This document shows positions 12,419 to 36,108 of a DNA stretch of 64,000 bases, in pieces. Source of the stretch: a virus; the IMG/VR virus record IMGVR_UViG_3300020000_000011, positions 1 to 64,000 of that record; one strand, written 5' to 3'. Every line of letters starts with the position of its first letter. Position 1 is the stretch's first letter. The translations under genes and the position numbers were made by a program. The notes under the pieces were generated by a model, which was given only the letters and a program-made list of their open reading frames with translations, was not told the origin of the DNA and searched no databases.

Positions 12419-15400
12419 GTGGATGTGGCACTGCGTGACCTTGACGGCCCCCTGCTAGCCGCCAGATGGGCACGAGCGGTCCTCGCTCAGGACCCGGCAC
12501 TGGTAGCGGCCTGCGAACAGGAGGCGTCCGTACGGGGCTTCACAGCGGCAGGTCTGGTCGCGGCGACGAAGAAGAAGAAGGAACCGTCGTTCAAGGCCGA
12601 CATCAAACCGACCGGGAAGTCGTACCAGACCCTCGCCAACGAAGCGAAGGCCAACCGCGACGCCGGGAACCCCGGCGGGATGAAGCGCGGCAAGACGAAG
12701 CCGGAGAACGTCGGCAAGGGCAAGTTCCGCAAGAAGTCCGGCGCCGGTGGCGGTGGCCAGTTCACCTCCGCCGACGACCCTGAAGCGATCGCCGAGGGCG
12801 AGATCGTCGCCGGGCACAAGGAACAGCAGTCGCTGTCCGACGAGCGTGCCAAGGTCCGCGAGCGCCGATCCGGTGAGGACGAGCAGCAACGCCAGCAGCA
12901 CTACGCCGACGACCAGACCGACCGGGAAGCCGACCAGGCGAACCGTGACGCCGACGAACAGGACCGTGCCGCAGCCGACGCACGCAAAGCAACCCGTGAT
13001 GCGCGCAAGGCGATGGAGGCAGCCGAGGACCAAGACATCGACGACCGTGTCCGCGCCAACGACACGTACCAGCGGACCGCCCAAGGCCAGATCGCCCTGA
13101 TGCAACGGCAACTGTCCGAAGCCCGCCAGGTCGGCCACACCGACGACGAGAACAAACTGCTCGACCAGATCAAGGAAGCGAACACGGCGTTGGAACAGGC
13201 CCGCGCCGACCGTGCCGCGCTGGAGCAGGAACGCACATCGAAGAAGACCGACCGGGCGACGTCTCGTGTCGTCGACGCCACCACCGAAGCCGAAGCCCGC
13301 GCCAAGGCGGCAGCGGACAAACGGGCACGCGACAACGCCAAGCGGACCCGTGACGAGACGAAGCGATCCACCCGTGAGTCGGAGCGCCGGGCGATTCGTG
13401 AAGCCCGTGCTGCCGAGGACGCGGCGCTCGCTGCGAAGTCGGCCGAGTTGCGTGACCGGATCGAAGAAGCCCGGCAACGCAAGCGTGACGCCGCCGCAGC
13501 CCGCAAGGCCGAAGCGAAAGCGAAGAAGGAAGCCAAGGCAGCAGCCAGGGGCCGGAAGGCGTCGGGCATGGTCGCCGCGTTCGGCCGGTTCAGTGAGGAT
13601 CTCCACCCTCGTGGCAAGGACGGCAAGTGGATCGAACTCCACGGCCTCGTCGACGTGTTCGGCCTGTCCGGGTTCCAACACGGCCAGCGGGGCAACAAGC
13701 ACGTCCAGGGCGAAGTGACCGAGATCATCCCCAACCCGAAGGACCCGGGCAACCCGGTCGTCCGCGTGAAGATGACCGACCCGCGCTGGTCGCCGGACAA
13801 GTTCGGTCCGACCGTCGACGTTGACCGTCACCAGATCCAGGCCCGTGTGAAGCCGAAGGCGACACTGACACCGACCGCACCGAAGACCGGGACACCGACC
13901 GCTGTCCCGGCGGTGAAGCCCTCGATCGCCCCGGCGAAACCTGGCGTCACAGTTATACCACCGCGTACGCCAACGCCTGCGATGACCCCGCACCCCGACG
14001 GCCCCGGGTTCGCACCGCTCAACCCGCCATCCGAATGGGCAACGATGACCCAGCCCGAGCAGTTGGCGTGGATCACCGACCTGATGCACGCCGACTTCAC
14101 CAAGTGGCGCGAGCAGGAAACCGGATTCGACTTCACCGGCTTCGACTCCGGCATCGCGTTGAACACGGCGAACACGTACCGCGACCTCGCCAACTGGGAC
14201 CCGCAGACGGCACGCCGGATCGACAACCCGATCATGTCGACCGGCGGACTCGGCCAGGGCCTCAACTCCAACGCCATCGCCGTCGCCCACCCCGGCACCG
14301 AACATCCCGGCGGGATCGGCGAGAAGACCGGCCCGGCCTCGATGGTGTTCGGCGCCAAGTACATGTCGGGCATGAAGTTCTGGAAGCAGCAACAGGAAGC
14401 ATCCGGCGGCAAGGACATCCCGTGGTCGATGTCGTCGCAGTACGGCGACCCGATGTTGACCGTCACCCACGAGTTCTCCCACCAACGCCAGTTCCGTTTC
14501 CTCGACATGGCGATGCGCGACGCCAACAAGCCGTTCGCGACCGCAGTGCGCGACGACGGATTCGGGATGGTGCCCGACTCCAGCAACTGGGCAGAAACCC
14601 AGGCACTGCGCTACGACATCCAGAAACTGGCACCGACGAAGTACGGCAAGTCGAAGTCGTCCGAAGCGTTCGCCGAGTCGTGGACCGCGAAGATGACCGG
14701 CGACTCCAGCCCCGAGCTAGACAACGCGTTGGAGCAGTGGGACATGTACATGGGCCTCGTCGAACACCTGCCGACCGACCGGCACTGGGACGCCACCCCG
14801 TTCGACCAGTTGTCCGCCGCCGAACAGGACCAGTTCTGGAAGGACAACGGCAAGTACCTCGATCTCCCCGGGATGGCCGAGCACTACCCCGATTCAGCCG
14901 CGGCCTACTCGGCGTGGCAGGCCGGGACCGAAGCACCCGAGGCGACCACACCGTTCGGGCACGGCTACTCGACTCCGGCAGCCGACTGGACCGAAGACGC
15001 CCCGGCGGCGATGCGAACCGCACCGGTGACCGACCCCGCCCAACTCGACGACCTGTACACGCGGCTCAACGCCAACCGTGCACAGGCGCGGCGGCTGCGT
15101 CTCACCTACCCGGCCGGGATCGGCGACCCGCAAGCACAGACTCCGCGTGTCCGGCCCCCAGGCGCGCAAGCCGAACTCGACCGCCTCGACGCCGAGTACG
15201 CCGATCTCCGCTCCCAGTACCATCCGCCGGTCGACTACACCGGCCCCGTGGTTACCCCGGCCGCACCGGGCGATGTCGTCGAAGGCCCGAACGGCACCCA
15301 GTGGGAAGCGACCGCCAACGCCAACGGTGTCGAACTCACCTACGACCACCCGTCCGGCACACGCCTGTACGTCGACTCCGGCCCGAACGGCGTGAAGTGG

Positions 15401-16387
15401 TCGATCCACGAAGAAGGCCACGACGAACCGTTGAAGGCCGGGATGGCCCGCACCGAAGCGGCAGCGATGGACGACGCCTTGTGGTACGCCAACCTCGACA
15501 CCGGCCCGGCCGAGATGCAACCGGTCGACTACGGCGAGGCGCCGGAGCGTCCGTTCAGTCTGTCGGAGATGCCGATCTCGCCGAACGGGCAAGGTGCCGG
15601 TGGGATGGTCGGCGCCGGGATCGACTTCTACAACCAGTACCGCGGTGCGAAAGAGATCGTCGACAACCTCGGCGACGCCGGTCCGGCGATGCGCGAACAA
15701 CTCAAAGCGGTCGACATCAGGTTGCTGCCCAAGACGGTGCACACCGCCCTCGATCTGCGTGGCCCGAACGTGCCGATCTCCGGGCGTACGGCGATGCAGT
15801 TCATGGCTGCGATCGCTCACGCAGCGGCAGCCGACGACGTCGGGATCATCAACACCGCCGTCGCGAACGTGATGGCCAAGGGCCGTTCCGACGAAGAGAT
15901 CTCCGACCAGTTGACGAAACTCGGTTATACACCAGAGTTGGGTCTGGTGACGACGATGCAGAACGGCTGGAACGAGTCGTCCCGGTCGGCGTTCGGGTAC
16001 GCGATGCAGGGCCTCGTCGGCGGCAAGGCGCCACGCCAGCTACGCCGGATCTCCGACGTCGGTGGGGCCGCGGCGCTCACCGAACAGATCGGCGACCCGA
16101 TGCGAACGGTGATGGACACCCAGGCCCGAATGACCCAGGACTTCCTGCGACTCAACGGCCTCACCTCGCTGACCGTGCACCGCGGCGTGAACATCGACGT
16201 GTCCAAGCGTGAAGTGATCGCCAACCCGTTGTCGTCGTGGGCGCTCGACCCTGGCATCGCCAACCGGTTCGGGATGACGGTGTACTCCACCTCGCTCCCG
16301 GCCGAACGGATCTTCGCGGTTCCTGAAGCGACCGGGTTCGGCTACTCAACCCTCGGTGAGATCGTCGTCTACGGCGGGAAGGTGTGA
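12419..16387 (+). CDS. multidomain putative head-packaged effector: coiled coil + HPRG/SH3-like module + zincin metallopeptidase + ADP-ribosyltransferase-like domain
   Basis: LHPRGKDGKW at 13604; THEFSH (14468) with KYG..SSEAFAE; C-terminal HRG..PLSSW..GEIVV (R-S-E ART pattern). Confidence 0.75.
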   Translation: MDVALRDLDGPLLAARWARAVLAQDPALVAACEQEASVRGFTAAGLVAATKKKKEPSFKADIKPTGKSYQTLANEAKANRDAGNPGGMKRGKTKPENVGKGKFRKKSGAGGGGQFTSADDPEAIAEGEIVAGHKEQQSLSDERAKVRERRSGEDEQQRQQHYADDQTDREADQANRDADEQDRAAADARKATRDARKAMEAAEDQDIDDRVRANDTYQRTAQGQIALMQRQLSEARQVGHTDDENKLLDQIKEANTALEQARADRAALEQERTSKKTDRATSRVVDATTEAEARAKAAADKRARDNAKRTRDETKRSTRESERRAIREARAAEDAALAAKSAELRDRIEEARQRKRDAAAARKAEAKAKKEAKAAARGRKASGMVAAFGRFSEDLHPRGKDGKWIELHGLVDVFGLSGFQHGQRGNKHVQGEVTEIIPNPKDPGNPVVRVKMTDPRWSPDKFGPTVDVDRHQIQARVKPKATLTPTAPKTGTPTAVPAVKPSIAPAKPGVTVIPPRTPTPAMTPHPDGPGFAPLNPPSEWATMTQPEQLAWITDLMHADFTKWREQETGFDFTGFDSGIALNTANTYRDLANWDPQTARRIDNPIMSTGGLGQGLNSNAIAVAHPGTEHPGGIGEKTGPASMVFGAKYMSGMKFWKQQQEASGGKDIPWSMSSQYGDPMLTVTHEFSHQRQFRFLDMAMRDANKPFATAVRDDGFGMVPDSSNWAETQALRYDIQKLAPTKYGKSKSSEAFAESWTAKMTGDSSPELDNALEQWDMYMGLVEHLPTDRHWDATPFDQLSAAEQDQFWKDNGKYLDLPGMAEHYPDSAAAYSAWQAGTEAPEATTPFGHGYSTPAADWTEDAPAAMRTAPVTDPAQLDDLYTRLNANRAQARRLRLTYPAGIGDPQAQTPRVRPPGAQAELDRLDAEYADLRSQYHPPVDYTGPVVTPAAPGDVVEGPNGTQWEATANANGVELTYDHPSGTRLYVDSGPNGVKWSIHEEGHDEPLKAGMARTEAAAMDDALWYANLDTGPAEMQPVDYGEAPERPFSLSEMPISPNGQGAGGMVGAGIDFYNQYRGAKEIVDNLGDAGPAMREQLKAVDIRLLPKTVHTALDLRGPNVPISGRTAMQFMAAIAHAAAADDVGIINTAVANVMAKGRSDEEISDQLTKLGYTPELGLVTTMQNGWNESSRSAFGYAMQGLVGGKAPRQLRRISDVGGAAALTEQIGDPMRTVMDTQARMTQDFLRLNGLTSLTVHRGVNIDVSKREVIANPLSSWALDPGIANRFGMTVYSTSLPAERIFAVPEATGFGYSTLGEIVVYGGKV

Positions 16388-16500
16388 CCGTGACCGACCT
16401 CGACCCTGTGTACATCGACGAAGACGACGAGATCTCCGACCCCGACTGGCCCAAGCACGACACCACCCCGTTCGTCGACCCCGAAGAGGAACGGCCATGA
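16384..16500 (+). CDS. small acidic peptide (candidate immunity/partner)
   Basis: 38 aa, coupled GTGA/ATGA. Confidence 0.45.
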   Translation: MTVTDLDPVYIDEDDEISDPDWPKHDTTPFVDPEEERP

Positions 16501-16718
16501 CCTCGATCGCCGTGCCGATCTGCTACTCGTGCATCCGTCTCCACCCCGGCGACGGGATGACCTGCGAAGCGTTCCCCGCCGGGATCCCCGAACAGATCGT
16601 CTCCAGCGAAGCCGACCATCGCCTGCCGTTCGCCGGTGACGGTGGCCTCACGTTCGAACAAGACCCCGATCTGCCCGAACCGGACGACACCGTGTTCGAA
16701 GGGAGCACCGATGAATGA
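16497..16718 (+). CDS. small CxxC..C.AFP.GIP..H protein
   Basis: CYSC...CEAFPAGIPEQI..DHRLPFAGDGG; family recalled next to phage head/toxin genes. Confidence 0.7.
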   Translation: MTSIAVPICYSCIRLHPGDGMTCEAFPAGIPEQIVSSEADHRLPFAGDGGLTFEQDPDLPEPDDTVFEGSTDE

Positions 16719-17448
16719 CGCCGAGGTGATGACCGCGTGGCTCACCGAACTCAACCGCCCGGCCCCCGACCCTGTGACCGTCGCCGCGTTGGAGGCGTCC
16801 GCCGAAGCCAACGGCTGGCAACCGCAGGCCGTGCTCGCCGCGTTCGACGAAGTGCTGCACCCCCGTGGTCACGACGGCCGGTTCATCGAGATCGGTGGAC
16901 TGATGAAGATCATCTCCGGCGACTACAAGGACGAGCGCGGCACGGTCGAGTCGATCACCCCCGACAAGTCCGGTCGCCCGACGATCCGGTTGAAGCTCGA
17001 CGACGGCGAGTCGATCGACGTCAAACCGGATGCCATCGAACAAGCCGCCGACAAGGCCCGGCTCATCGACGCAACGGATATGCCCGCTGTCGGCCGCATC
17101 CCGAGGTCACCGAAGCGGGAGGGACCGGCGCCGACGTTCGCACCGGGCGAACTCGACTGGATCGCCAACCGCGGTCAGGTCGAAGAGACACCGAACGAGG
17201 CTGGTCACAAGAAGTGGACGTACTACGGGAACGAGACGCACACCTCTGGATGGGGCGACTCGGTCAGCAGGCCAGTGACGATTCGGACTGAACTGTCGGA
17301 CCCGGCCGAGTTGGACGACGAAGAGGTGTACCAAGCGTTGATGCTCGTGAAAGATGCACGGTACGGCGTCGATCCACCCGAGGTGACCGCCTACCGCGAC
17401 GCGCTCCAAGACGAATGGCGCATGCGGATCGCCCGGAGTTACCAGTGA
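16711..17448 (+). CDS. HPRG/KOW-like module protein with unknown C-terminus
   Basis: AVLAAFDEVLHPRGHDGRF; KOW-like MKIISGDYKDERGTV; N-terminus paralogous to 17445. Confidence 0.8.
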   Translation: MNDAEVMTAWLTELNRPAPDPVTVAALEASAEANGWQPQAVLAAFDEVLHPRGHDGRFIEIGGLMKIISGDYKDERGTVESITPDKSGRPTIRLKLDDGESIDVKPDAIEQAADKARLIDATDMPAVGRIPRSPKREGPAPTFAPGELDWIANRGQVEETPNEAGHKKWTYYGNETHTSGWGDSVSRPVTIRTELSDPAELDDEEVYQALMLVKDARYGVDPPEVTAYRDALQDEWRMRIARSYQ

Positions 17449-19955
17449 ACGATGACGCCGACGTCCTCGCAGCGTGGCTGGTCGAACTGACCCAACCGGA
17501 ACCGAACCCGGCGATCATCGCCTCACTGGAATCGGTCGCCGAAGACAGCGGCTGGTCGCCTCGCCACGCCCTCACTGCCCTGCTGGCACGCACCGACTTC
17601 AACCCCGACCTGCACCCCCGCGGTCACGACGGCAAGTTCATCGAGAAGTTCGGCATCGTCAAACTGCTCGGCAACGTCATCGCACCCGACGGACGCAAGG
17701 TCGACGCCACCGGCCGACGCGGTGTCGTCGAAGGCATCGACCCCGACCCGCGCACCCCCGGCCGACCGAACATCCGTGTCCGCATGATCGACAAGGACGG
17801 CCGACCCGGCCCGCCTGTCCACGTCAAGCCCGACGGTGTCGAACAGGCACCCGAGAAGGCCCGCCTCGACAAGCCTCTCGACCGTGCACCCAGTGGACCC
17901 AGACGCCCGGCACAGGCGCCAGGGCGTCCGCTGGCGACCCCGAAGCGCACCGTGGTACCCGAGACACCCGAACAACGCCAGGCACGCGCTGACGCCGACG
18001 AGAAGGCAGCGATCGCCCGCGAGGCACGCACCGTCCCCAACGCCGACATCGACTACCAGACCACCGTCGGCCCGTCGCAGTGGCGCGACGCGGTGATGAC
18101 CGAGAAGCAGGCCCGCGAAGCCAAAGCCGCAGCCGACCAAGCACGACGCCAGGCGCTGATCGACGACGTCAACGAACAAGCCAAGGGACTGTCAACAACC
18201 GACGCCGAAGAACGAGCCATTGGCCTCGACGCCATCCTCGCCAAGTTGCGGTTCTCGATCATCGACACCGACAAGGTCCACGACCACCTGTACCCGCCCG
18301 AAGACGGCAGCCAGTGGACCCCGGAGCGCACCGCCCAACACGAAGCGATGTGGGAAGAGTTGCTCGCCGACGTCGAGAAGGCCGGGATCCCCAAGGACAA
18401 GGACGCGTTCGTGCTCGGTGGACTCCCGGGCGCGGGCAAGTCGTACTCGCTGCGCCCCGGCGAAGCAGCCGACTCGTTCGGTGTCGTCGCCTGGGAACCG
18501 AACGTCCCCGTCCCCGAAACAGCGACGCACGTGTCGATCAACCCCGACGTCGTGAAAGAGATGCTGATCGCTCACGGCATGCTGCCCGAGGGCCTGTCCG
18601 ACGACATGAAACCGATGGAGAAGGTCACGTTCCTCCACGAAGAATCGTCGTACCTCGCCAAGATGTTCTCCGCCCGACTCGGCGAAGAGGGCTACAACGT
18701 GGTGCTCGACAACACGTTCGACTCCGAGGGCGGGATGCTGAAGCGGATGGCCCCACTCGCTCGCGAGGGCTACACGTTCCGTGGCCTGTTCGCCGACATC
18801 CCGATCGACGAATCGAAGAAGTCGGCCAAGGACCGCTACATCCGTGGCGCGCTGACACCCGAAGGTGGACGGTTCGTCCCCTCCAGCGTGCAGGGCAACC
18901 GGCAGTCGACGAAGTCGTTGTCGAAGAACCGTGACGCGTTCGATCTGATGGTCGCCCAGGACTGGTTCACCGACTGGAAGGTGATCGACAACACCGGCGT
19001 CACTGAAGGCCACCCGAAGAAAGAGATCGTCGGCGAAGGCCAAGGCACCGGCGCGGCAGCGTTCGCCTACCGTCCCGGCCAGGAGAAGAACGCACCCAAG
19101 GTCGGCCCGCGCCTGACACCCGAACAGCAACCGGCACCGACGATCGACGTGTCGACGATCGGTGGACCGAACCGCACCTCGATCTCCCCGGCCGGATCCG
19201 AACAGTTGGCCAAGGACATGATGTCCGGCAAACCGATCGCACCCGAAGACCACGACGTCGACGACATCGTCGACCACTTCGCCGACAGCGAGAACCCGGT
19301 CGACCTGACCCTGATGTCGCAGTTCTCGGCGATGCGCGCCGGTGGCATCCCCCGCTCGCAGATGCCGCAGATCTCCAAGAAACACACCGACGCGTTCCAG
19401 AACCGGTTGCGTGAATCCGGTGTCGACTTCGGCCCCGGGATCGTCGACCCGCTCGACCTGAAAGCGACCCAGTCCGAGTTGGACGGCAAGACCGTCGGCG
19501 GGATCATGCGCGCCGCGAGGGCCGGGGAGATGGACCTCCACGGGCACCCGATCTGGATCTCCAACGACGGGTACGTCCTCGACGGCCACCACCGTTGGGG
19601 CGCGGCGTCGGCACTGTCGTCGAACTGTGGTGAGCCGGGCTGTGTGCAGATCCCGGTGATCCGAGTCGACCTGCCGATGTCCGAGCTACTCCAGTTCGCC
19701 AACACGTTCAATGACGACATGGGTGTCCAGCGTCTCGGTTTCGGAGAGTCGCTCCCGGCCGGGCAGATCGCACCGGTCGCGTCGGGCATGCTCGCTGCCG
19801 CAGAGTTCGGTCCACCGGCGCAACTCCCGGCGCCGGACGACAACGGGAACTACGAGATGGCCACCGACGAAGAGGACGGCGTCAACCCCGCCGATCTGGA
19901 GGGCTTGTCGCACGGTGACGGTTCAGCGTTCGGCTATGAACCGAAGGGCGAGTAA
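17445..19955 (+). CDS. HPRG module + zeta-toxin-like P-loop kinase + ParB/Srx domain
   Basis: LHPRGHDGKF; GGLPGAGKS (18417), INPDVVKE, HEESS, VVLDNT, GGRFVP; LKATQ..ISNDGYVLDGHHRW. Confidence 0.85.
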   Translation: MNDDADVLAAWLVELTQPEPNPAIIASLESVAEDSGWSPRHALTALLARTDFNPDLHPRGHDGKFIEKFGIVKLLGNVIAPDGRKVDATGRRGVVEGIDPDPRTPGRPNIRVRMIDKDGRPGPPVHVKPDGVEQAPEKARLDKPLDRAPSGPRRPAQAPGRPLATPKRTVVPETPEQRQARADADEKAAIAREARTVPNADIDYQTTVGPSQWRDAVMTEKQAREAKAAADQARRQALIDDVNEQAKGLSTTDAEERAIGLDAILAKLRFSIIDTDKVHDHLYPPEDGSQWTPERTAQHEAMWEELLADVEKAGIPKDKDAFVLGGLPGAGKSYSLRPGEAADSFGVVAWEPNVPVPETATHVSINPDVVKEMLIAHGMLPEGLSDDMKPMEKVTFLHEESSYLAKMFSARLGEEGYNVVLDNTFDSEGGMLKRMAPLAREGYTFRGLFADIPIDESKKSAKDRYIRGALTPEGGRFVPSSVQGNRQSTKSLSKNRDAFDLMVAQDWFTDWKVIDNTGVTEGHPKKEIVGEGQGTGAAAFAYRPGQEKNAPKVGPRLTPEQQPAPTIDVSTIGGPNRTSISPAGSEQLAKDMMSGKPIAPEDHDVDDIVDHFADSENPVDLTLMSQFSAMRAGGIPRSQMPQISKKHTDAFQNRLRESGVDFGPGIVDPLDLKATQSELDGKTVGGIMRAARAGEMDLHGHPIWISNDGYVLDGHHRWGAASALSSNCGEPGCVQIPVIRVDLPMSELLQFANTFNDDMGVQRLGFGESLPAGQIAPVASGMLAAAEFGPPAQLPAPDDNGNYEMATDEEDGVNPADLEGLSHGDGSAFGYEPKGE

Positions 19956-19973
19956 CCCGCTATACTCCGGGGC

Positions 19974-20285
19974 ATGACACAGACTCTGACTCCGACCATG
20001 ATCCTGCCTATCCGCAAGGTGACGCTGGGACTCTCCGATCTCGACCAGTTCACGCTGCGCGACGGGATCGACAGTTACCTGTTGAACCCGCACGGCGCGT
20101 ACGGCTTCCCGATCGTCCACGCCGATCTCGACAACCAGCACGTGTTCCACAAGGACCTGTGCCATCCGTTGACCCGTTCCGAGGTGGAAAGCCTGTGGGC
20201 CAACGAACGCGAGATCCGTCCGCATGGTCTGTCGGCCGTGCAGTTCTGCTCGATGTGCGTCACGAACATCCACCTGGTGTTCTGA
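19974..20285 (+). CDS. hypothetical early protein
   Basis: leaderless after GCTATACT (19959-19966); FHKDLC...CSMC. Confidence 0.6.
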   Translation: MTQTLTPTMILPIRKVTLGLSDLDQFTLRDGIDSYLLNPHGAYGFPIVHADLDNQHVFHKDLCHPLTRSEVESLWANEREIRPHGLSAVQFCSMCVTNIHLVF

Positions 20286-20812
20286 TGAGCGCCGAGCTAC
20301 GAGACGAGATCGCCCAAGTCCTCAACCGGCACTCGCGAGAGAACCGGTCGGATACCCCCGATCATCTGCTCGCCGAGTTCGTGCTGGATTCGCTCGATGC
20401 GTTCGATCGTGTCGTGCGGATGCGTGAGTCGTGGTACGGGCGAGTGCTGCGCTACGGCAACGACGTCCCGGCACCGTTGCAACTCGTCCACAACGATCCA
20501 CTTCAGATCGCCGATCCCGTTCCGTCGCGTGACGCCGACCTGGATCCACCGATCCCCGTCGACCAACTGAAGTTCATCGCCGAGGTACGCGACGAGGAAC
20601 CACCCGTCGAAGAGGACCGCGTCCCGGTACGTCACTTCGACTGGGACGAGAACACACCGCTCGGCACCGCGCTCGGTGAAGCGATCGGCCTCGCGTCGAT
20701 GTGCTGGACTGAAACCCCCGGCGGGATCTTCGAATCCGAACGTGCCGGTGACATCGTCAACGAACTGCTCTGGTTCCTGACCAAACGAGACGAGGAACTC
20801 CATGCAAACTGA
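20285..20812 (+). CDS. conserved phage hypothetical protein (two-domain)
   Basis: LNRHSRENRSDTPDHLLA.F and AIGLASMCW..PGGIFES motifs. Confidence 0.7.
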   Translation: MSAELRDEIAQVLNRHSRENRSDTPDHLLAEFVLDSLDAFDRVVRMRESWYGRVLRYGNDVPAPLQLVHNDPLQIADPVPSRDADLDPPIPVDQLKFIAEVRDEEPPVEEDRVPVRHFDWDENTPLGTALGEAIGLASMCWTETPGGIFESERAGDIVNELLWFLTKRDEELHAN

Positions 20813-21399: not shown

Positions 21400-21422
21400 T
21401 TCGATAGAACTAGCCTCGGTCC

Positions 21423-24400
21423 GTGCCACCGAGGACGTTCGATCTCCGCGTCGACCAGATCACCACCGAGAACTTCGCGGCGATCGCTGCCAATCCCGAG
21501 ACGAGGTGGTACGCGCAACGCTCCCTGCGGCGCCTCGCCCCGGCTCTGACCGCTGCCGGTGAGTGGAACCCGCTGCTCCACCCCCGCGGGAAGGACGGCA
21601 AGTTCTTGGAACGGTTCGGGTGGGTCCGTTGGCTCGACAAGAACTTCAACTGGCAAGAGGGCTGGATCCAAGACATCGACCCGAACACCGGCGAACTGTC
21701 GGTCCGCTCCGGTGGCTCGACGAACAAGTTCCCGAACGCCAAGAACCTGTACTCGCGACCCAAGCGCAAAGCGCGCCTCGGCCTCCCCAACCCCGTCGAC
21801 GGGACCGTGCCCGACGGATGGAAGAAGGTCGGTGGCCAAGGCGGATCGAACCCCGGCGGGATGTACCAGACCGTCGGCGGCAACGCCAACGCCTCACCCG
21901 AACTCGGCCCCAGGTCGAACACCGTGTACTCGCTGATGCAGATGTCGGCCGGGCAACCGCTGTACGGACTGTTCCTGAAAGACAAGGGCCTCCCCGCCGC
22001 ATCGTTCGCCGGTGGCTCCAACGTCGTGTCCGTGCCCCGCCTCGACGGCACCAAGGGGCGCCAGGATGTCCTCTACCGATCCGGGCCTGACTGGTACCGA
22101 GTCCCGGCGTCCGGCTCGATGCTCGACGCTGACGGGGTCCTGCGTGACGATCTGAAGTGGGCGGCGACCGACGTGTTCGGCGAACCCAACTCGGAGCGAC
22201 GCAAAGCGGTCCTCGACGACCAGGACGCGCTCGGCACGAACCTCGGCGAAGGGTTCGAAGTCGACGATCTCGCCGGGCTGATCCAATCGACCGGGTCGAG
22301 CCTGCCCGACGACGGCGACAAGTTCTACGTGAAGACGATGAGCATCCCCGAACGGGCGCGCAACGAGGCGATGGCCAACCACCTGTACGAGATGCTCGGT
22401 GTCCCGGTGCCCGAGGTGGCGGTCGGCACCGACGGCAAGACGATCTCGTCGAAGCTGATCCCCGGCAACGTCCCGTTCGACCCGTCGAACACGGCGCACA
22501 TCGAAGCCGCGCAGAAGGGATTCATCGCCGACGCGCTGCTCGCCAACTGGGACGCGGTCGGGATGACCTACGACAACATGCAGGTCGACGCCGACGGCAA
22601 CGTGTGGCGGATCGACGCCGGGGGCGCGCTCGCCTACCGGGCGCAAGGCAAACCGAAGGGCGCGATGTTCGGGACCACCGTCGGCGAGATGAACTCGCTG
22701 CGGAACCCGCAGATCAACCCGCAAGCCGCACTCGTATACGGCGGTATCCCTCACGCCGACCAGGTCGCCCAAGCCGAGGTGCTGGCCACGATCCACCCCG
22801 AGGACCTGCTCGCGCTGGCCGAAGAGTTCGAACTCCCCGAGATCGGCCCGATCCTCGTCGCCCGGCGCCAGAACATCCTCGACGCCTACCACGTCACCAC
22901 GTTCAAGGCACCCGAGCCGGAACCGGTGAAGGCCCCCGAGATCAACCTGAACCCGCCACCGCAAGGCACCGGCCCGCAAGTCGCCGTCGACACCTACGAC
23001 CAGCAGTTCGCCAACCTGTCGACCGTCACGTTCGGTGGCGTGTGGAACAGCAACGTCTCCGAAGCGAACCGTGCCGAGTGGTGGAAGAACGCCGTGATCG
23101 CCCGCGGCGGCGACCTGCACACCTACTACGGCGAGTACAACCACCAGCCGAACACCGACAACGTGTCGATGCTTGCCCGCAACCAGATGAACGGCAAGGT
23201 CGAGAAGATCTACTTGTCCGACCAGACGCCGGTCCTCGGCGAACTGTTCCGCGACGACCCGGGCCTCGACAACCTCGTCGACGACTTGAAGGTGTCGCGT
23301 GAACTGGCGATCGCCGAGATCGTCGACCAGTCGAAGGGCGTCCCGCTCAACGACATCATGGCCGACACGAAGATGTTCGTCGGTGACGACTCGGTCGATT
23401 CGGGCACGATGGCGTTGCACCACTTCCAAGTCGGCATCCCGAACTGGCAGACGCTGATGGCCGGGCGGGAACGCAACTACTACGGGCCAGAGAACGCCTG
23501 GGCGCTGCGCGACGGGTACGGCCAACTGTGGGAGATCACCACGTTCCCCGAAGACGACGGCGACGACCTCGTGTTGCAGTGGATCTCACCCTCGGGCAAG
23601 GCGTCGACATGGACGCTGAACAAAGAGTCGTTCGCCAACAGCAACTGGTTCCGGGCGGGCAACGACACCACCGCAGCGATCTGGAAGTCGAAGATCCCCG
23701 AGACTGCCGCCAAGCCGAACCCCGACGACGTCGACGTCTCGCACCTGTCACCGGACGACCAGAAGTGGTACCAGCAGATGTCGGCGACCGATGTCGACAA
23801 GCCGGAACCGATCGAAGCCGACCCGGCCGACGCGCCGAGCCAGGTGTTCGTCAAGACCGACCCGACGACATGGAAGTACGCCTCCGACGAAGAGTTCAAC
23901 GAGGCGTTCCCCGACTCGACGGTCGCCACCCAGATCCAGAACGACGTCGACCCGGAACTGGAGAAGGTGATCGCCGAAGAGGAAGCGATCGCTCAGGCGG
24001 TCGCCAACGCCGCGCCGACAGTCGAGATCAAGACGAACGGCACCATCGTCGACGCCCTCGGCCCCGGCGAACCGATCATGTCGACCGAGTGGCTGCCCGG
24101 CGACATCGACCAGATCACCGCCGACCTGATGGGCAAGAACGTCGTGGTCCTGCCGCTCGGCGCGCTCGACAACCCCGACTGGGACGGCCAGATGGGGATC
24201 GCCAACGGCCTCGGCACCGTCGTCGAAGTGAAGCTGAACAACGAATGGGTCGGCGGCTACGACTCTACGGGCAAGTACAACTCCGGCTGGGAGGATGTCG
24301 TCAAGGTCAGGGTGCAACTCCCGTCCGGGCAGTTCACCACGATCATCGGTGGCGACTCCGGCAAGAACCCGAAGGTCGTGTTCCCGGTGGAGATGACCCC

Positions 24401-27400
24401 GGTGCCGATGACCCCGACGTTCAAGAAGACCGGCGAGATCGTCATCAACGGCACCGTCGTCGGCACCTGGCACGCACCGTATACCGGGCCATACGAAGAC
24501 CAGGGTTACTACTACTACCGCGGCGTGATCGACGCCGACCACTCGATCACCGGCAAGCCGGTGAAGTTCCAGACCAACAAGAAGAAGAACATGAAGGCCG
24601 GACCGGCGTCGCTCGTCGTGCCGATCGCACCGAAGCCGACGAAAGCGAAGTCGACCAAGGTGTACATGACCGAGCAGGAGATCAAGGATCTCAACGCCCA
24701 ACTCGTCAACGTCCAAGCCGACATCGCAGCGACCACCGACCTGATCGCCAACCCGACCCAGACCCCGGTCGGTGAAGGCGTCCCCCTCGCCGATGGTTCG
24801 TACCCGCAGATCGGCGACTGGGTGATGTCGACCAAGGACGGCAAGTACGGCAAGGTCGTCGAACTCTCACCGAACATCGGCCCGGCGTACTCGGCCGCGG
24901 TCGCCGCCAACTACATCAAGCTGAACTTCCAAGACCCGGCCACGGGGAAGTGGAAGAAGTCGAACCGCACCCTGCCGACACTCGTCGCCGTCGCCGGGCC
25001 GGGTGAACCACCGTTCGTGATGGAGACGAAGGCGTTGCAGGACGTCTCCGGCGACTGGTACGGGCCGGGCATGGAGGTCTATGCCGCAGGCGCAGTGGGT
25101 GGCGCCACCGACGTCGGTGACTTCTCCAACCAGTTGGTCCTCGACACCACCACCGACGGCAAGGTCAAGTTGAAGCACGCCGACGGCACCGTCCACTGGA
25201 CGACGTCGAAGAAGGTGTTCGCCCCCGGCAAGGCAGCCGAAGAGGAAGGGGCCGTGCTGCCGACGATCAAGAAACTGCCGACCGGCGCGTCCGCCGAGGA
25301 ACTCAACGCCCACCTCGCCGCGCTCAACGACACCCACACGCTGATCGCCGCACAGATCGCCAACTCGACGTCGAAGAAACCGAAAGCGAAGAAGGCGGTC
25401 GGGACCCCGTACCCCGGCCCGAACGGCAAGACCGTCAACCAGCCCGCGTACTACGCCGAGCAACGCACCGCCAAGGGCCTCAACAACTACAAGGACGGCT
25501 ACGCCCCATCGGTCGGCCAGATCCTGCGACACAACGACGGCACCCAGTACGTCGTTGCCGAAGTCGGACTGGAGTACACATCCCACAAGAACTCGGTGCG
25601 TGTCTATCCGCTCGGCGACGCGTACAACTCCAAGTGGCGTGCAGTGACCACGATGGTCGTCGACCACGAGACGACGCTGACCGACGGATTCGGCAACCCG
25701 CTACCGATCATCAACCAGGTCGAGGGCGCCGACTGGTCACCGACGTCGGGTGTGCTGTGGCGCCAGGACACCGAAGAGAGCTACTACCACAAGAACCCGC
25801 TGACCTTGAAGACCGAGTGGCGCACGAAGCCGGTGTCGAAGTTCTACGTCGTGTCCGGCGAAGGCGCGGTGTACAACATCGACGGCACCAAGGTGCAGTC
25901 GTGGAATGTCAGTTCGACGCTGGCCAACTCGGTGCGCGTCGGTTACATCGACAAGGACGACAACAGCGCCGGGGCGATGAAGCTGACGGTGTCGATCCAG
26001 CAGCACGACAAGATCGGCGCAGTCCAATACGCCGTTATACACGACCCGGCTGATTCGGCCGGTGTGATCCTCACCAAGCCGAAGGTCGAAGGCCCGAAGC
26101 CCGACCTCGGTGTCTACGACAAGGTGAAGGAAATGTACACAATCATCACGCAGGAAGAGTACGACGCCTCGCCGACGACCTACACGATCCTGCCCAACCA
26201 GGAGCACACGCAGACCGCGGCACAGTGGAAGGCAGCGCATGGCGTGCAGCCGGTCGTGCCACCCGTCGCTGAACCTGCACAGGCGCCCGAGGTGGCGCTG
26301 CCGGAACCCAGCGAGCTACCCACCGCGCCGGATCTCCCCGTGTTCGCAGGCGCCAACCCGCAAGGCACAGAGGTCCCGCACCCGGCGGTCACCACGTCGT
26401 CGGTCGGGGTCCCCTCGTACAAGGCGACCGGCGGCACGAACCTCGACGTCGCCGGGATCGGCGGGGCACGCTCGGTGATGGGCGCGCTCGCCGAAACGAT
26501 CGACACCGCCAAGGCGAACAAGCAGACCGGTGAGAAGACGTGGATCTCGACGTACGGCCTCGCCGACCACGACGTCATCGAAGACATGATGGTCCAGACC
26601 CAAGTGGTACGCGACTCCGCCGGGAAAGAGTTCGTCGAAGTCCGCTTCCGTGTCGACACCGAAGCCGCCCGCACCAACCACGCCACGTTCATCACGTCGT
26701 CGACGAACCAGTCCGGCGACTGGGACTTCAACGACCGCAACGCCAAGAACCTCGTCGCCGGTGACCTGATCGCCGTGCGCGTCTCCGGTGGTGGTGGCGT
26801 GACGGTGTCCGGTGCGCTGCGACCCGACGGTGGCGCTGGTGAAGGCAAGACCCCGAACGCGACGGTGACCGGCCCACCGACGCTGATCGGCAAGAACAAG
26901 GCCGGGACGTACGACGTGTGGCGCACCCCGGTGGTCACCGCCAACGGTGACGAAGGCTGGATCGACCTGGAAGACCGCGACGGTGCCGACACGATCGCCA
27001 CAGCGTTCTGGGATCCGACCAAGCCGCGGACGACGAACGGTAACAAGAGCCTCAACCCGAACGCCCAAGCCGACGGCTGGTCGGTGAAGACCACGAGCCT
27101 CGGCTGGGAACGTTCTGACTACCAGGACGGCAAGGACGAACGCTACGACGACGCCGTCAAGAAACTCGGCAACGGATCGAACACGACCACAGTCGGCCAG
27201 GGCTGGGTGCTGAACCGCGACTACGACGGCGCCAACATCCAGTACCAGACGTCGTCCGGCCGGAACTCCAACGACGGCAAGGTCGTGATCCGCGTCCCGG
27301 TCGACGACCCCGAAGCGCAACGCAAGATCTCCGAAGCGATGGAGTTGGTCGGCGTGTCGAAGGAAGCGCAGGCCCCGCCGGACAAGGCGGCGTTGCAGAA

Positions 27401-28226
27401 GATGGCGACGAACAAGGTGTGGGCGCAGTTCAACCCGATCTACACGAAGGGGAAGAAGCCGAACTCGCCGCAAGAGGCGCTGACGGCGATCGACAACGCG
27501 GTCGGCGCACAGTTGGGTCGCAAGGCGACGATGGACGACATCTCGCTGCGAGTGTTCGACGACGGCCGGGTGCAAGTCCTCGTGTCCGAAGACGTGTCGC
27601 GAGCGATCGTCGCCAAGAACGGTGTCAAGGCGTACACCCACCACTTCTCGTCGCAGGGCATGAAGAAGACGATCGAGGGCGCGATGACCCAAGAGCACCC
27701 GGGGTTGATGGCGACCACCGAACGGTGGCAGCACGGCATGTTCTACAACGGGATGTCGTCGGTCGCCGACCACGGTCACGACTCCGCCGACCATCTGTTC
27801 TTGCGGATGTCGAAGGACAACACGTCGTCGTCGCAGGGGACGCTGATCATGGACCCGGTGATGATCCACCGGCAGGTCGACTACTACTGGCAGCCGCACG
27901 ACACGTACGGCGAACGGCCGCACGCTCACAACTCCGACCAGTTGAACTGGTTGACGCCCGGCAGCCTTCAGTCCGGCAACGAGTTGATGATCAAGCGGCG
28001 ACTGGAAGCGACCCTGTGGGGCCACGTCATCCTCACCGCCTCCGAGCGTCAGGAGTACATCGACCGGCTGCACAAGGAAGGCGTCACCCACGCACCGAAC
28101 GGGATGCTGTTGGAGGACTTCTTCGTGACCACCGGCGGCGCGGCGGCGCTCCCCAAGGACGCCCCGTCGTTCGGGCAGGAGATCCCGCTCACGGCGCTGC
28201 CCGAGAACTTCCCTGGAGCGATCTGA
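21423..28226 (+). CDS. giant multidomain putative effector: HPRG module + HipA/PI3K-like kinase + unknown domains + putative C-terminal ART-like domain
   Basis: ALTAAGEWNPLLHPRGKDGKF; GGSNPGG, FYVK, NEAMAN.LY, DALLANWD, WRIDAGGAL; C-terminal HH..GLMATTER..SSVAD..ADHLFLR..NELM. Confidence 0.75.
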   Translation: MPPRTFDLRVDQITTENFAAIAANPETRWYAQRSLRRLAPALTAAGEWNPLLHPRGKDGKFLERFGWVRWLDKNFNWQEGWIQDIDPNTGELSVRSGGSTNKFPNAKNLYSRPKRKARLGLPNPVDGTVPDGWKKVGGQGGSNPGGMYQTVGGNANASPELGPRSNTVYSLMQMSAGQPLYGLFLKDKGLPAASFAGGSNVVSVPRLDGTKGRQDVLYRSGPDWYRVPASGSMLDADGVLRDDLKWAATDVFGEPNSERRKAVLDDQDALGTNLGEGFEVDDLAGLIQSTGSSLPDDGDKFYVKTMSIPERARNEAMANHLYEMLGVPVPEVAVGTDGKTISSKLIPGNVPFDPSNTAHIEAAQKGFIADALLANWDAVGMTYDNMQVDADGNVWRIDAGGALAYRAQGKPKGAMFGTTVGEMNSLRNPQINPQAALVYGGIPHADQVAQAEVLATIHPEDLLALAEEFELPEIGPILVARRQNILDAYHVTTFKAPEPEPVKAPEINLNPPPQGTGPQVAVDTYDQQFANLSTVTFGGVWNSNVSEANRAEWWKNAVIARGGDLHTYYGEYNHQPNTDNVSMLARNQMNGKVEKIYLSDQTPVLGELFRDDPGLDNLVDDLKVSRELAIAEIVDQSKGVPLNDIMADTKMFVGDDSVDSGTMALHHFQVGIPNWQTLMAGRERNYYGPENAWALRDGYGQLWEITTFPEDDGDDLVLQWISPSGKASTWTLNKESFANSNWFRAGNDTTAAIWKSKIPETAAKPNPDDVDVSHLSPDDQKWYQQMSATDVDKPEPIEADPADAPSQVFVKTDPTTWKYASDEEFNEAFPDSTVATQIQNDVDPELEKVIAEEEAIAQAVANAAPTVEIKTNGTIVDALGPGEPIMSTEWLPGDIDQITADLMGKNVVVLPLGALDNPDWDGQMGIANGLGTVVEVKLNNEWVGGYDSTGKYNSGWEDVVKVRVQLPSGQFTTIIGGDSGKNPKVVFPVEMTPVPMTPTFKKTGEIVINGTVVGTWHAPYTGPYEDQGYYYYRGVIDADHSITGKPVKFQTNKKKNMKAGPASLVVPIAPKPTKAKSTKVYMTEQEIKDLNAQLVNVQADIAATTDLIANPTQTPVGEGVPLADGSYPQIGDWVMSTKDGKYGKVVELSPNIGPAYSAAVAANYIKLNFQDPATGKWKKSNRTLPTLVAVAGPGEPPFVMETKALQDVSGDWYGPGMEVYAAGAVGGATDVGDFSNQLVLDTTTDGKVKLKHADGTVHWTTSKKVFAPGKAAEEEGAVLPTIKKLPTGASAEELNAHLAALNDTHTLIAAQIANSTSKKPKAKKAVGTPYPGPNGKTVNQPAYYAEQRTAKGLNNYKDGYAPSVGQILRHNDGTQYVVAEVGLEYTSHKNSVRVYPLGDAYNSKWRAVTTMVVDHETTLTDGFGNPLPIINQVEGADWSPTSGVLWRQDTEESYYHKNPLTLKTEWRTKPVSKFYVVSGEGAVYNIDGTKVQSWNVSSTLANSVRVGYIDKDDNSAGAMKLTVSIQQHDKIGAVQYAVIHDPADSAGVILTKPKVEGPKPDLGVYDKVKEMYTIITQEEYDASPTTYTILPNQEHTQTAAQWKAAHGVQPVVPPVAEPAQAPEVALPEPSELPTAPDLPVFAGANPQGTEVPHPAVTTSSVGVPSYKATGGTNLDVAGIGGARSVMGALAETIDTAKANKQTGEKTWISTYGLADHDVIEDMMVQTQVVRDSAGKEFVEVRFRVDTEAARTNHATFITSSTNQSGDWDFNDRNAKNLVAGDLIAVRVSGGGGVTVSGALRPDGGAGEGKTPNATVTGPPTLIGKNKAGTYDVWRTPVVTANGDEGWIDLEDRDGADTIATAFWDPTKPRTTNGNKSLNPNAQADGWSVKTTSLGWERSDYQDGKDERYDDAVKKLGNGSNTTTVGQGWVLNRDYDGANIQYQTSSGRNSNDGKVVIRVPVDDPEAQRKISEAMELVGVSKEAQAPPDKAALQKMATNKVWAQFNPIYTKGKKPNSPQEALTAIDNAVGAQLGRKATMDDISLRVFDDGRVQVLVSEDVSRAIVAKNGVKAYTHHFSSQGMKKTIEGAMTQEHPGLMATTERWQHGMFYNGMSSVADHGHDSADHLFLRMSKDNTSSSQGTLIMDPVMIHRQVDYYWQPHDTYGERPHAHNSDQLNWLTPGSLQSGNELMIKRRLEATLWGHVILTASERQEYIDRLHKEGVTHAPNGMLLEDFFVTTGGAAALPKDAPSFGQEIPLTALPENFPGAI

Positions 28227-28990
28227 TGGCCATGAAGCGACTGTTCGGCAACCAGTTCCCGGTGACGATGGAACGCAAAGACGGCCGACTGATCTACCTC
28301 GTCAACGAAGCGTTCTACGACGAGCACGCCCGTGAGGCGCGCATCGACGACGACTACGCCGGGAAGTTCATGGCCGTCGACACCGTCGTGTTGGACTCCG
28401 ACAACGAGTTCCGGTTCCTCGACGACTCCGGCGACAAGGTCGTGTTGCGCCCGACCCGGCCAGATGACGCCGCAGCGTCGCCCATGTTCAGCCTCGGCAT
28501 CCCACTTCCCGTCGAAATCATTGGAGCATTCATGACCGGCACCATCAGCGAACCGTCGATCTCGGCAGCCGTCGACGACGAAGGCGACGTTCACACCATG
28601 ATCCTCGAAACCGGTACGGGGTTATACGCAAGGTACTCGCGGCAGTGGATCCTGCTGTCCGACATCTCGCCGATCGAATCGCTCGACATCGTCGATGTCC
28701 CAGGGTCGGACCTGGAGCACTACGACATGGCCGACGACGTCGGCAAGGTGATCTCGATCCGTGACCTGTCGCCGATCAACCCGCCCGCAGCGTCGGCGAC
28801 CGGGCCGTCGCGTGCCGAACCACCCCCGGCGGTGACCGCCTCGGCGTCGGCGATGATCGTGGTCGCCTCCGCAGCCGACATCCCCGAGGCCATCGCCTGG
28901 GCTGAAGGCCACCCCGAGTCACGCTGGTACGTCGCCAGGAAGGCCCAGGCGCTCGGCTGGGCCGCTCCGATGCCGTGGGCTGACCAGTGA
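28226..28990 (+). CDS. hypothetical head-associated protein
   Basis: TGATG-coupled to giant ORF; AVTASA site; C-terminal HPESRWYVARKAQALG. Confidence 0.7.
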   Translation: MAMKRLFGNQFPVTMERKDGRLIYLVNEAFYDEHAREARIDDDYAGKFMAVDTVVLDSDNEFRFLDDSGDKVVLRPTRPDDAAASPMFSLGIPLPVEIIGAFMTGTISEPSISAAVDDEGDVHTMILETGTGLYARYSRQWILLSDISPIESLDIVDVPGSDLEHYDMADDVGKVISIRDLSPINPPAASATGPSRAEPPPAVTASASAMIVVASAADIPEAIAWAEGHPESRWYVARKAQALGWAAPMPWADQ

Positions 28991-29994
28991 AGCCCAGAAC
29001 GTTCCCGGTCCCTGTGGGGGCACGTAGCGGCCTCCTGGGGGCTGCTGCAACGTTCGATCAGATCGACCTCGCGGCCACGCTCGGCAACCGGTGGGCGGGC
29101 AAGATCCTGGCCCGCGAGAACGCCCGCATCCTCGGCTCGGTCCTCGGCAACGACATGCGGCTCCCGTTCGGGATCTGCACCGAAGTCGACGACGACCTGT
29201 TCGTCACCGCCCTCGTGCGCGGCAACGAGTGTTTCACCGCCGCCGGATGGCTCCCTGTGGACGACCCTGTGGACGACCCGATCCCGCTCGACGCCGACGA
29301 GGTCGCGTTCGTTGCCCGGGCGTTCGGCGAAGGGTACGACTGCGTGATCATGAAGGGCTACGCACCTGTGGCGATGCTGGCCACCTCGATGCCGGTCCCT
29401 GGCACCGACGCCCCGGCCGTCGACGTTCCTGAAGGCGCCAAGATCCTCGCCGTGGTCGACGACGGTGACCGCAACGCTGTCCTCGACGTCATCGCTGTCG
29501 CGCCTGGCCCGAAGGTGTACCGCCGCCACGACGGCACCTGGCAGGAAGACACGTCGTTCATCGCCCGGCTGCGCTCGGTGAAACCGCCGCCGGTCGTCGC
29601 CCTCGACGAGGCACAGTTGGCGTCGGTGCTCCCGCAGGTCGACGAGCAGACCGCCGGGATCCCGTTCACCAAGGAACCCCCGAAGAAAGCGACGACGGCG
29701 TCGGCGTACTCGGATCGGGCCGACGAGATGGCAATCGAGTTCGCGCTGCTCGCAGCAGGGCCGGGCAAGGCCCTGTCGCAGGCGACACCGGGCGGGCGTG
29801 AACCGGCGCAGCTACGCGAATACTGGGCGTTCGGTCCCGGCGCAGCGAAGATCCGGTGGGGCACACCAGGCGCATGGCGCAGGTGCCACCGCCAGTTGAC
29901 GAAGTACGTCGGCCCACTCATCTCCAAGGGGCTGTGTACGAATCTGGCGAAGCTGCGTGGCGGGCATGGTGTCGCCACGCACGTCGGCAGCTAG
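28987..29994 (+). CDS. head-associated protein with YW..G.GAAKIRWG domain
   Basis: LREYWAFGPGAAKIRWGTPGAWRRC..LTKY..GLC.NL, a domain recalled from actinophage head/protease proteins; ALLAAG site. Confidence 0.65.
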   Translation: MKPRTFPVPVGARSGLLGAAATFDQIDLAATLGNRWAGKILARENARILGSVLGNDMRLPFGICTEVDDDLFVTALVRGNECFTAAGWLPVDDPVDDPIPLDADEVAFVARAFGEGYDCVIMKGYAPVAMLATSMPVPGTDAPAVDVPEGAKILAVVDDGDRNAVLDVIAVAPGPKVYRRHDGTWQEDTSFIARLRSVKPPPVVALDEAQLASVLPQVDEQTAGIPFTKEPPKKATTASAYSDRADEMAIEFALLAAGPGKALSQATPGGREPAQLREYWAFGPGAAKIRWGTPGAWRRCHRQLTKYVGPLISKGLCTNLAKLRGGHGVATHVGS

Positions 29995-31659: not shown

Positions 31660-31702
31660 CACCCGCACAGTACCCACCTGTAACGGCGAATAACCGGATA
31701 TC

Positions 31703-31780
31703 TGGTGGCAGGGGCGGGATTCGAACCTCGCGACCTCCGGGTTATGAACCCGACGAGCTACCGGACTGCTCTACCCTGCG
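31703..31780 (-). tRNA. tRNA-fMet (CAT)
   Basis: cloverleaf, CAT anticodon, GGG/CCC anticodon stem, 1:72 mismatch, CCA end; one extra base in T stem. Confidence 0.85.
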
Positions 31781-36093: not shown

Positions 36094-36108
36094 GCGCGCA
36101 CCGTAGCA

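Follow-up and report, generated by a model that had tools for sequence, protein, structure and literature searches.

The window analysed here comprises bases 1–64000 of a single 96,595-bp contig (IMG/VR virus record IMGVR_UViG_3300020000_000011; 66% GC), the genome of an uncultured tailed phage of actinobacteria. We found that four of its proteins, P0001 to P0004, carry the same cassette of ~100 residues, in which a near-invariant HPRG peptide is followed by a small β-barrel and then by a payload that differs from protein to protein. The cassette is spread over a large family with diverse payloads, the genes encoding it stand beside the head genes in relatives, and the capsid protein and the prohead protease have the short site that lies upstream of the peptide. 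We favour the view, with a probability of roughly 0.55, that P0001 to P0004 are made as precursors of a cargo inside the capsid, which would be packed in the head and enter the cell together with the DNA.

Four proteins share an HPRG-KOW module

All four genes are on the plus strand. P0001 (12419–16387, 1322 aa) consists, as read from its translation, of a leader with LVAA sites, a charged coiled coil of ~330 aa, the junction with the HPRG-KOW module, a zincin-like domain and a C-terminus that may resemble ADP-ribosyltransferases (ARTs). P0002 (16711–17448, 245 aa from an ATG; the identical product is also recorded as P0013) has a two-helix leader, a VLAA site, the module and a C-terminal domain without a recognised family. 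P0003 (17445–19955, 836 aa from a GTG at 17445) starts with a leader homologous to that of P0002, followed by the module, a Zeta-toxin-like kinase (18393–18899) and a ParB-like DGHHRW region (19299–19718). The giant P0004 (21423–28226, 2267 aa) has its own leader, an LTAAGEW site, the module, a possible atypical-kinase-like domain (~22311–22889) and a long conserved remainder. The module copies span 13574–13870 (where MVAAFGRFSEDLHPRGKDGKWIE precedes the barrel, with KATL at the close), 16828–17067, 17583–17870 and 21549–21782, all on the plus strand.

A preliminary description of this DNA, made from the letters alone, had placed the motif HPRGxDG[KR][FW] in these four reading frames. A six-frame regular-expression scan of the window and of the whole contig found it four times in total, at exactly those coordinates (13604, 16858, 17613 and 21579). 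The four modules also align significantly, as had been supposed. In BLASTP, P0002 matched P0003 at 3e-33, P0001 at 4e-9 and P0004 at 2e-6, and the alignments always covered the module. Outside it, the sole additional similarity was a weak leader match to the N-terminus of P0001 (E 0.074), in agreement with the description that the proteins diverge after the module. When the four modules are aligned, 18 columns do not vary, among them LHPRG, DG, E, G and the K-A-x-L at the end.

P0002 was modelled with AlphaFold2 from a 40-sequence module alignment. The model had a pLDDT of 95–98 over residues 50–110 and placed five strands after the HPRG peptide and two confident helices in the leader. In Foldseek, the barrel matched the KOW domains of Spt5, NusG and ribosomal eS4 (E 2e-4 to 5e-3, probability 0.98–1.0). 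The Pfam KOW profile (PF00467) hit P0002 only, with 19.9 bits and E 6e-4, which is under the gathering cut-off of 22.3. As modelled, the module is therefore a five-stranded SH3-like barrel of the KOW subtype, which confirms the beta-rich, SH3-like stretch noticed earlier and gives it a subtype.

The whole cassette, as we propose it, would run from a variable leader through h-[T/V]-A-A-x-[W/F] and [D/N]-[P/E]-x-L-H-P-R-G-x-D-G-[K/R]-F-I-E to the KOW/SH3-like barrel ending in K-A-R-L, and from there through a Pro-rich linker to the payload. No Pfam, NCBIfam or PHROG model covers it, and literature searches did not find a description of the motif; these included Iyer et al. (PMC5512222), in whose text a search returned no HPR motif, KOW, SH3 or linker element, and Jamet et al. 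(PMC5576092), where the motif is not mentioned. The cassette is apparently undescribed. We set aside DNA binding by the barrel, as the P0002 module is net acidic by count from the sequence.

Payload domains of the four proteins

The payload of P0003 was the easiest to recognise. Its Zeta_toxin domain (PF06414, aa 327–495) was found by Pfam at 3.4e-10 and 40.1 bits against a cut-off of 22.3, the P-loop GLPGAGKS is invariant across 12 homologues, and the family profile matched PDB 1gvn at E 2e-3. Judged by these matches, P0003 is clearly a predicted Zeta-toxin-family kinase. Its C-terminus has a DGHHRW motif and matches phrog_2859, a family of unknown function, at 5e-24; Pfam and PDB sequence searches gave no match for this ParB-like region. 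Thus, the zeta half of the kinase-plus-ParB/Srx assignment in the preliminary description stands, while its ParB/Srx half is a suggestion from the motif and the PHROG match.

For P0001, the AlphaFold2 model of aa 511–840 (13949–14938) reached a pLDDT of 80–95. In VIA-align, this domain matched the catalytic domain of anthrax lethal factor (1yqy_A, residues 460–778) with a Z of 10.1 over 205 aligned residues (rmsd 6.6), well above the next unrelated rows. The HEFSH motif together with this fold match supports a lethal-factor-like, zincin-like domain at the level of the model. Foldseek on the 822-aa P0001 model gave nothing significant; the zincin match came from VIA-align. The C-terminal tail (15536–16384) gave Pfam DRAT at E 0.032 (aa 1247–1320) and the atlas rows DUF4765, DRAT, ADPrib_exo_Tox and Mod_ADP_RT, the last three at 0.81–0.88. 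No listed structural match covers this region, and the AlphaFold2 model there has a pLDDT below 50. Of the zincin and ART that had been proposed for P0001, the zincin is therefore upheld, whereas the ART-like tail is only a lead. The coiled coil of this protein weakly resembles Vipp1/PspA.

P0002 has no recognised enzyme domain, and no family was found for the payload that had been listed as unrecognised. The HipA/PI3K-like kinase proposed for P0004 survives as a set of atlas leads at 0.88–0.91 (PI3_PI4_kinase, LepB_N, HipA_2 and actin-fragmin kinase), so that the atypical-kinase-like domain is a lead as well. Residues 297–489 of P0004 (22311–22889) are 34–40% identical to part of ~1200-aa proteins of Gram-negative phages that are annotated 'ADP-ribosyltransferase' (Pseudomonas Dolphis gp117, Aeromonas ST4 and Yersinia fHe-Yen8-01). 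The remainder of P0004 had no match in Pfam or PDB sequence searches. PDB sequence searches with P0004, P0001, their family profiles and the capsid protein gave nothing useful. The Pfam polyvalent-protein families had no match on P0001–P0004, nor was Phage_Mu_F found in them at E≤0.1.

The module is widespread and recurs as a junction in giant proteins

We ran an exhaustive profile search with the module over 1.84 billion representatives and obtained 416 clusters at E≤1e-3, among them 146 at E≤1e-10. The module lies mostly at residues ~50–150 of proteins from 100 to more than 3000 aa and can also be internal; the leader varies from 13 to 385 residues and the peptide is near-invariant. P0004 orthologues are 2000–2540 aa long with the module at residues ~50–125. 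A Pfam tally of 89 relatives listed Zeta_toxin, AAA_33, GNAT, 2_5_RNA_ligase2 (2H), Acb1, NUDIX, WGR, PARP, ADPrib_exo_Tox and ART-PolyVal as fused families. Since these families vary across the 89 relatives, the payloads are interchangeable. The variable C-terminal enzymes near head genes that a module search was expected to return were thus found, and the interchangeable enzyme set behind the module that had been proposed from the four proteins extends to the family.

The barrel is not a constant part of this pattern. In P0083 (5313 aa), P0109 (7334 aa), P0103, P0173, P0178 and P0179, the peptide occurs without the barrel, in 6–16 copies spaced every 200–500 residues, for example in the form [FW]S-x-WDE-x-KHPRGEHG[KR][WF]. 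It brackets an ART-PolyVal domain in P0103 and a Phage_Mu_F domain in P0173. The conserved core is therefore a peptide of ~20 residues, which recurs barrel-free between the domains of giant polyvalent proteins and is for this reason a junction element of phage-type polyvalent proteins. We concluded that the cassette is the one-gene-per-payload form of the junction that separates the domains of these giants.

No relative was found in the representative bacterial genomes scanned, and so a link to temperate phages was not seen. In a plasmid search with P0178, the matches were limited to a payload domain. We also considered the 'structural protein' gp205 of Rhodococcus phage E3 as proteomic support and rejected it, as it shares the payload domain of P0178 but is devoid of the HPR motif.

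A short T/V-A-A site is shared with the capsid protein and the prohead protease

The preliminary description had noticed a small-residue site a few residues upstream of each of the four modules. This site is real and broader than was stated. Drawn from 251 motif instances, the sequence before the peptide has the consensus L(−10), T/V(−9), A(−8), A(−7), x, W/F(−5, 94%), D/N, P/E, x, L and then HPRG. The pattern [LIMV][TV]AA was present within 20 residues upstream of HPRG in 38.6% of the instances against 2.3% of control windows, a 17-fold enrichment.

The same kind of site occurs in two head proteins of the window, the major capsid protein (39736–41727, plus strand, 663 aa; phrog_777, 1.9e-49) and the prohead maturation protease (37775–39034, plus strand, 419 aa; phrog_18402, 1.8e-56). 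In the capsid protein it reads EAMTAAGWCAP (residues 305–315, 40648–40680) and marks the border between a variable, acidic, Pro-rich N-terminal region of ~310 aa and the conserved body; orthologues have EGLTAAGWCAP and EAILAAGGYCAP, and the site is kept in L007 and L009. The protease has LVAAG sites at aa 33 and 215, as ALVAAGFP near its N-terminus and as MALVAAGTG after the catalytic domain, and both are kept in four orthologues. In the predicted proteome, [TV]AAG[WFY] is found 3 times against 0.25 expected, in the capsid protein, the protease and g28987 (28987–29994), and h[TV]AA 28 times against 12.6 ± 3.5 expected, clustered in P0001, the protease and the capsid protein. We infer from these sequences that T/V-A-A is a common putative substrate site of the prohead protease. 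As the two head proteins have it too, the site speaks for processing, either in addition to loading or in its place.

Two further features were seen in the same proteins. The N-terminal region of the capsid protein (39736–40650; 310 aa, acidic and proline-rich) is conserved over its first ~55 residues, including ELVAAFDAAD; it probably represents a fused scaffold or delta domain. We dropped the notion of the leaders as copies of this capsid scaffold N-terminus, the profile comparison being not significant (hhalign E 0.27). The peptide A-L-R-x-R-V-H-G is repeated in the C-terminal tail of the protease (aa 285–305, 38630–38700) and of its orthologues. In P0133 and P0142, two short proteins with the tag, it immediately precedes the HPRG motif; it is a possible second shared signal.

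Tagged genes stand beside head genes in relatives

To read the gene context of the module, we combined tblastn searches with the proteins of this phage, maps of open reading frames (ORFs), PHROG scans and annotated records. The module is present in 17 IMG/VR loci. In eight relatives (L002, L003, L004, L005, L007, L009, L013 and L014) the gene order is large terminase, MuF, portal, tagged genes (P0003- and P0004-like), g28987, protease, tagged zincin (P0001-like) and capsid protein, so that the P0001 orthologue is directly 3′ of the prohead protease. The tie to head genes that had been presumed is thus seen in relatives, where tagged genes come directly after the portal or the prohead protease and upstream of the capsid gene.

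The tie extends over three portal families in which tagged genes follow the portal. In L012, a tagged ORF of 3395 aa or more comes after an 830-aa portal-MuF fusion (phrog_2662/12), and in L024, with another portal family (phrog_21), the terminase and the portal are followed by large ORFs with the giant-type motif. Among cultured phages, gp66 (1479 aa) of Gordonia phage Phendrix comes directly after the portal gp65. It begins with LTAAF...WNEALHPRGADGRWI, followed by a barrel-like stretch and a P0004-type kinase-like domain, and shares its N-terminus with P0004. In Streptomyces phage Gilgamesh, gp48 (4624 aa) has one N-terminal copy and comes after gp46, a 'portal and MuF-like fusion protein'. 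A tblastn search of cultured phages with the 96-aa module returned nothing at E≤1e-3; a second module query gave a marginal Phendrix match (E 0.02), which was then confirmed by reading the sequence. Orf10 of Gordonia phage GMA2, also located after the portal, was ruled out as it has no HPRG motif.

In this phage the MuF protein stands alone. The gene at 53039–53848 (plus strand) encodes a 269-aa MuF-like head morphogenesis protein with Phage_Mu_F at residues 127–216 (Pfam 7.8e-9), and a motif scan and Pfam found no HPRG motif, toxin or other fusion on it, as had been described for this short gene. However, the proposal that the module acts as a MuF-independent tag does not hold for the family. 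MuF and the module form one 954-aa ORF in L010, the peptide flanks Phage_Mu_F in P0173, and the tagged genes of L012 and Gilgamesh follow portal-MuF fusions. It is in this genome only that MuF and the four tagged proteins are separate.

The portal of the present phage maps to genome positions 70593–72206 (L018:6593–8206; phrog_776, 3.4e-84), ~40 kb from the tagged genes, whereas in relatives and in Phendrix it is immediately upstream of them. Going by these gene positions, the head module of this genome is rearranged. Among cultured phages, those of Actinomycetia, Arthrobacter, Microbacterium and Gordonia have the most similar portals (33–37% identity); a megablast search of the region did not find a close cultured relative.

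Cargo, junction or adaptor

According to the cargo reading, the precursors would be built into the procapsid along with the portal, the protease and the capsid protein. Their presence there when the protease acts is expected because the genes recur between the portal and the capsid gene, fusions to MuF exist and the short site is shared. The protease would cut the precursors at T/V-A-A, as it may do on the capsid protein and on itself, and the HPRG-barrel unit would be left at the new N-terminus to hold or handle the cargo within the capsid. Once ejected, the payloads would act early on the host: a lethal-factor-like zincin with an ART-like region, a Zeta-like kinase with a ParB-like region, and an atypical-kinase-like giant. 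Packaging, cleavage, docking and injection are thus conditional steps of this scheme. The sites of the capsid protein and the protease have no HPRG peptide, which suggests a cargo-specific role for the peptide, in docking or handling, rather than in protease recognition. Of the capsid-loading and ejection tag first proposed, the discrete module, the interchangeable payloads and the connection to head genes have held, with gene context as the support, and the MuF independence has not.

Several points weigh against the cargo reading. The support for it comes from gene context. The cassette genes of this phage are separated from the protease, which lies downstream, by ~10 kb and from the portal by ~40 kb. 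The T/V-A-A site is short and Ala-rich in a genome of 66% GC, the scissile bond and the specificity of the protease are guesses, and the g28987 copy of the site is not conserved in orthologues. The leaders and the N-terminus of the capsid protein, as noted, did not match significantly as profiles. The ART, ParB and kinase assignments of the payloads are weak. The module is acidic, so that DNA binding is unlikely, and no binding partner was identified. Finally, the repetition of the HPRG peptide between the domains of the giants fits a processing signal equally well.

This last point leads to the alternative that survives best, though we consider it unlikely. T/V-A-A with the HPRG peptide would be the recognition signal of the prohead protease or of the lethal-factor-like zincin, by which polyproteins are cut into domains, and would have no role in loading. 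The present phage would then have a polyvalent protein split into four genes, each of which has kept its junction; to this form of the idea we give the same low credence. The 6–16 barrel-free copies between the domains of giants are what such a signal would look like, MuF and ART-PolyVal are flanked by the peptide like any other domain, the tagged lethal-factor-like zincin adjoins the prohead protease in relatives, and processing of polyvalent proteins by peptidases was proposed by Iyer et al. (PMC5512222). But T/V-A-A occurs in the capsid protein and the protease without an HPRG peptide, which would thus be dispensable for cleavage there, and twenty conserved residues plus a folded barrel exceed the needs of known protease sites. 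Moreover, the single N-terminal tag of one-payload proteins such as P0002 and Gilgamesh gp48 separates nothing but a short leader.

It is improbable, in our estimate, that the tagged proteins are structural rather than effectors, forming an internal core or an ejection conduit, like the T7 core or the P22 ejection proteins, with the module as an assembly domain. This would suit the P0004-type proteins of 2000–2540 aa, which are kept in many relatives with the module always at ~50–125, are encoded directly after the portal and have no enzyme-family match over most of their length. Other tagged proteins, however, hold clear enzymes (Zeta toxin, GNAT, NUDIX, 2H/Acb1 and ARTs), and the payload set varies between close relatives, unlike that of core structural proteins.

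That the proteins are cytoplasmic enzymes which are never packaged, with the KOW-like module as an adaptor to host RNA polymerase or the ribosome and head-gene proximity as late co-expression, accords with the fold match to NusG, Spt5 and ribosomal proteins and with the distance of the tagged genes from the portal and the protease in this genome, but we likewise give it little chance, in view of the recurrent place next to portal, MuF or protease with three portal families, the fusion to MuF in L010, the barrel-free use of the motif in giants, and the short site in common with the capsid protein and the protease.

A broader form of the cargo reading is that the HPRG peptide, with or without the barrel, is a general portable address which loads arbitrary proteins into tailed-phage capsids for ejection, in phages whose portals belong to three or more unrelated families, and that cleavage at T/V-A-A frees the leader. 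We put this forward tentatively, as a possibility that we rather doubt.

Other features of the window

The conserved g28987 protein (335 aa, plus strand) always follows the P0004-type giant in relatives as well. Its C-terminal KIRWGTPG-W-RC-x-L-KY domain (phrog_6439) is also part of a 1668-aa PHROG polyprotein, and in L004, L006 and L008 the protein is extended by a long, scaffold-like coiled coil. Just upstream of the protease, a plus-strand gene (37086–37778) encodes a 2H-phosphoesterase-like protein with two HxT-type motifs (PF13563, E 2e-3). In L014 (9224–11458) this domain is fused before an HPRG junction and a kinase-like domain; the gene here may be an untagged cargo or a split form. 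For the small ORFs 3′ of P0003 (19974–20285 and 20802–21134), an informative family match was not found.

Among the remaining head and tail genes, the large terminase (50685–52208, plus strand) has Pfam Terminase_6N and Terminase_6C, and the tape measure (genome 73285–77172) matches several PHROG tape-measure families. An AAA_5 (MoxR/CobS-like) ATPase (43407–44366, Pfam 4e-20) and a family-less 651-aa ORF (45074–47029) are located among the head and tail genes, and this pair lies between the terminase and the portal in L003. The 522-aa protein encoded directly after the MuF gene (53853–55421) has a C-terminal DUF6011 domain (Pfam 2.9e-10); DUF6011-like termini are present near the cassette in L003, L004 and L005 as well.

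A minus-strand island (30082–36959) interrupts the otherwise plus-strand genome, and the GC and AT skews flip at 30–32 kb. It contains tRNA-Met (31703–31780), tRNA-Glu (36811–36882) and tRNA-Gly (36884–36959), all on the minus strand, and a 531-aa minus-strand ORF (30082–31677) with no Pfam or PHROG match. ARAGORN also called a minus-strand tRNA-Cys (61216–61289) inside the overlapping tail-fibre-like ORFs 60245–61774 and 61216–62967 (both phrog_4492), which may be a false call or a sign of wrong ORF boundaries.

Comparison with known systems

To our knowledge, how tailed phages beyond T4 and P1 choose the proteins that they pack and inject is largely unknown. In T4, the internal proteins IPI–III and Alt have an N-terminal capsid targeting sequence that is removed by the prohead protease gp21. 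The cassette would resemble this system as a putative N-terminal address on unrelated cargo, including an ADP-ribosyltransferase, beside a predicted cut site that is also present on the capsid protein. Unlike in T4, there is no sequence relation, the site is T/V-A-A instead of L/I-x-E, and the conserved part is downstream of the presumed cut, so that it would stay on the mature cargo, including a folded barrel.

Encapsulin cargo-loading peptides are short, C-terminal and found on diverse enzymes, which they direct into an HK97-fold shell. The HPRG peptide is likewise short, conserved and on diverse enzymes, with a putative binding to the capsid protein, but it is not C-terminal and is unrelated in sequence. 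The five-stranded SH3-like barrel is shared with the KOW domains of NusG/Spt5, eS4 and uL24. It differs from them in its Pfam score under the cut-off, in the invariant HPRG peptide before the barrel and in its phage head-gene context; we know of no KOW protein with such a peptide before the barrel.

Close parallels exist with phage-type polyvalent proteins. These multi-enzyme proteins, encoded near head genes and featuring zincin peptidases, ARTs and MuF, have been suggested to enter the virion, to be injected and to be split into their domains, and their metallopeptidases were linked to lethal factor (Iyer, Burroughs, Anand, de Souza, Aravind 2017, PMC5512222). In the same way, P0003 and P0001 each combine two distinct enzyme or effector domains (Zeta_toxin with a ParB-like region; zincin with an ART-like tail), while P0002 has none recognised. 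The tagged genes stand beside head genes, directly after the portal or the protease in relatives. As to hallmark domains, the modelled zincin fold matches lethal factor, none of the Pfam polyvalent-protein families matched P0001–P0004, and ART-PolyVal and Phage_Mu_F occur in the motif-bearing relatives P0103 and P0173. Unlike in polyvalent proteins, the enzymes are distributed here over four genes, each headed by the cassette. Polymorphic toxins of the MuF type combine a conserved, head-associated N-terminal unit with toxin-like C-termini that vary, and are encoded near the portal and the terminase (Jamet et al. 2017, PMC5576092). P0001–P0004 show the same arrangement of variable C-termini after a conserved N-terminal unit, but they have no MuF domain, and the MuF of this phage is a separate 269-aa protein.

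Implications

If the cargo reading is true, it provides a rule to predict injected early effectors from sequence, such as Zeta kinases, ARTs, 2H/Acb1-like esterases and NUDIX proteins, and many of these may act against host defences. It would also account for the organisation of giant polyvalent proteins, hint at the specificity of a poorly studied prohead protease and offer a candidate tag for loading foreign proteins into phage particles. The tag is present in cultured phages, Gordonia phage Phendrix/GodonK and Streptomyces phage Gilgamesh, which makes the idea accessible to bench work. Should the peptide prove to be a general address, it would be the first cargo-loading code for actinobacterial siphophages and a tool for protein delivery by phages.

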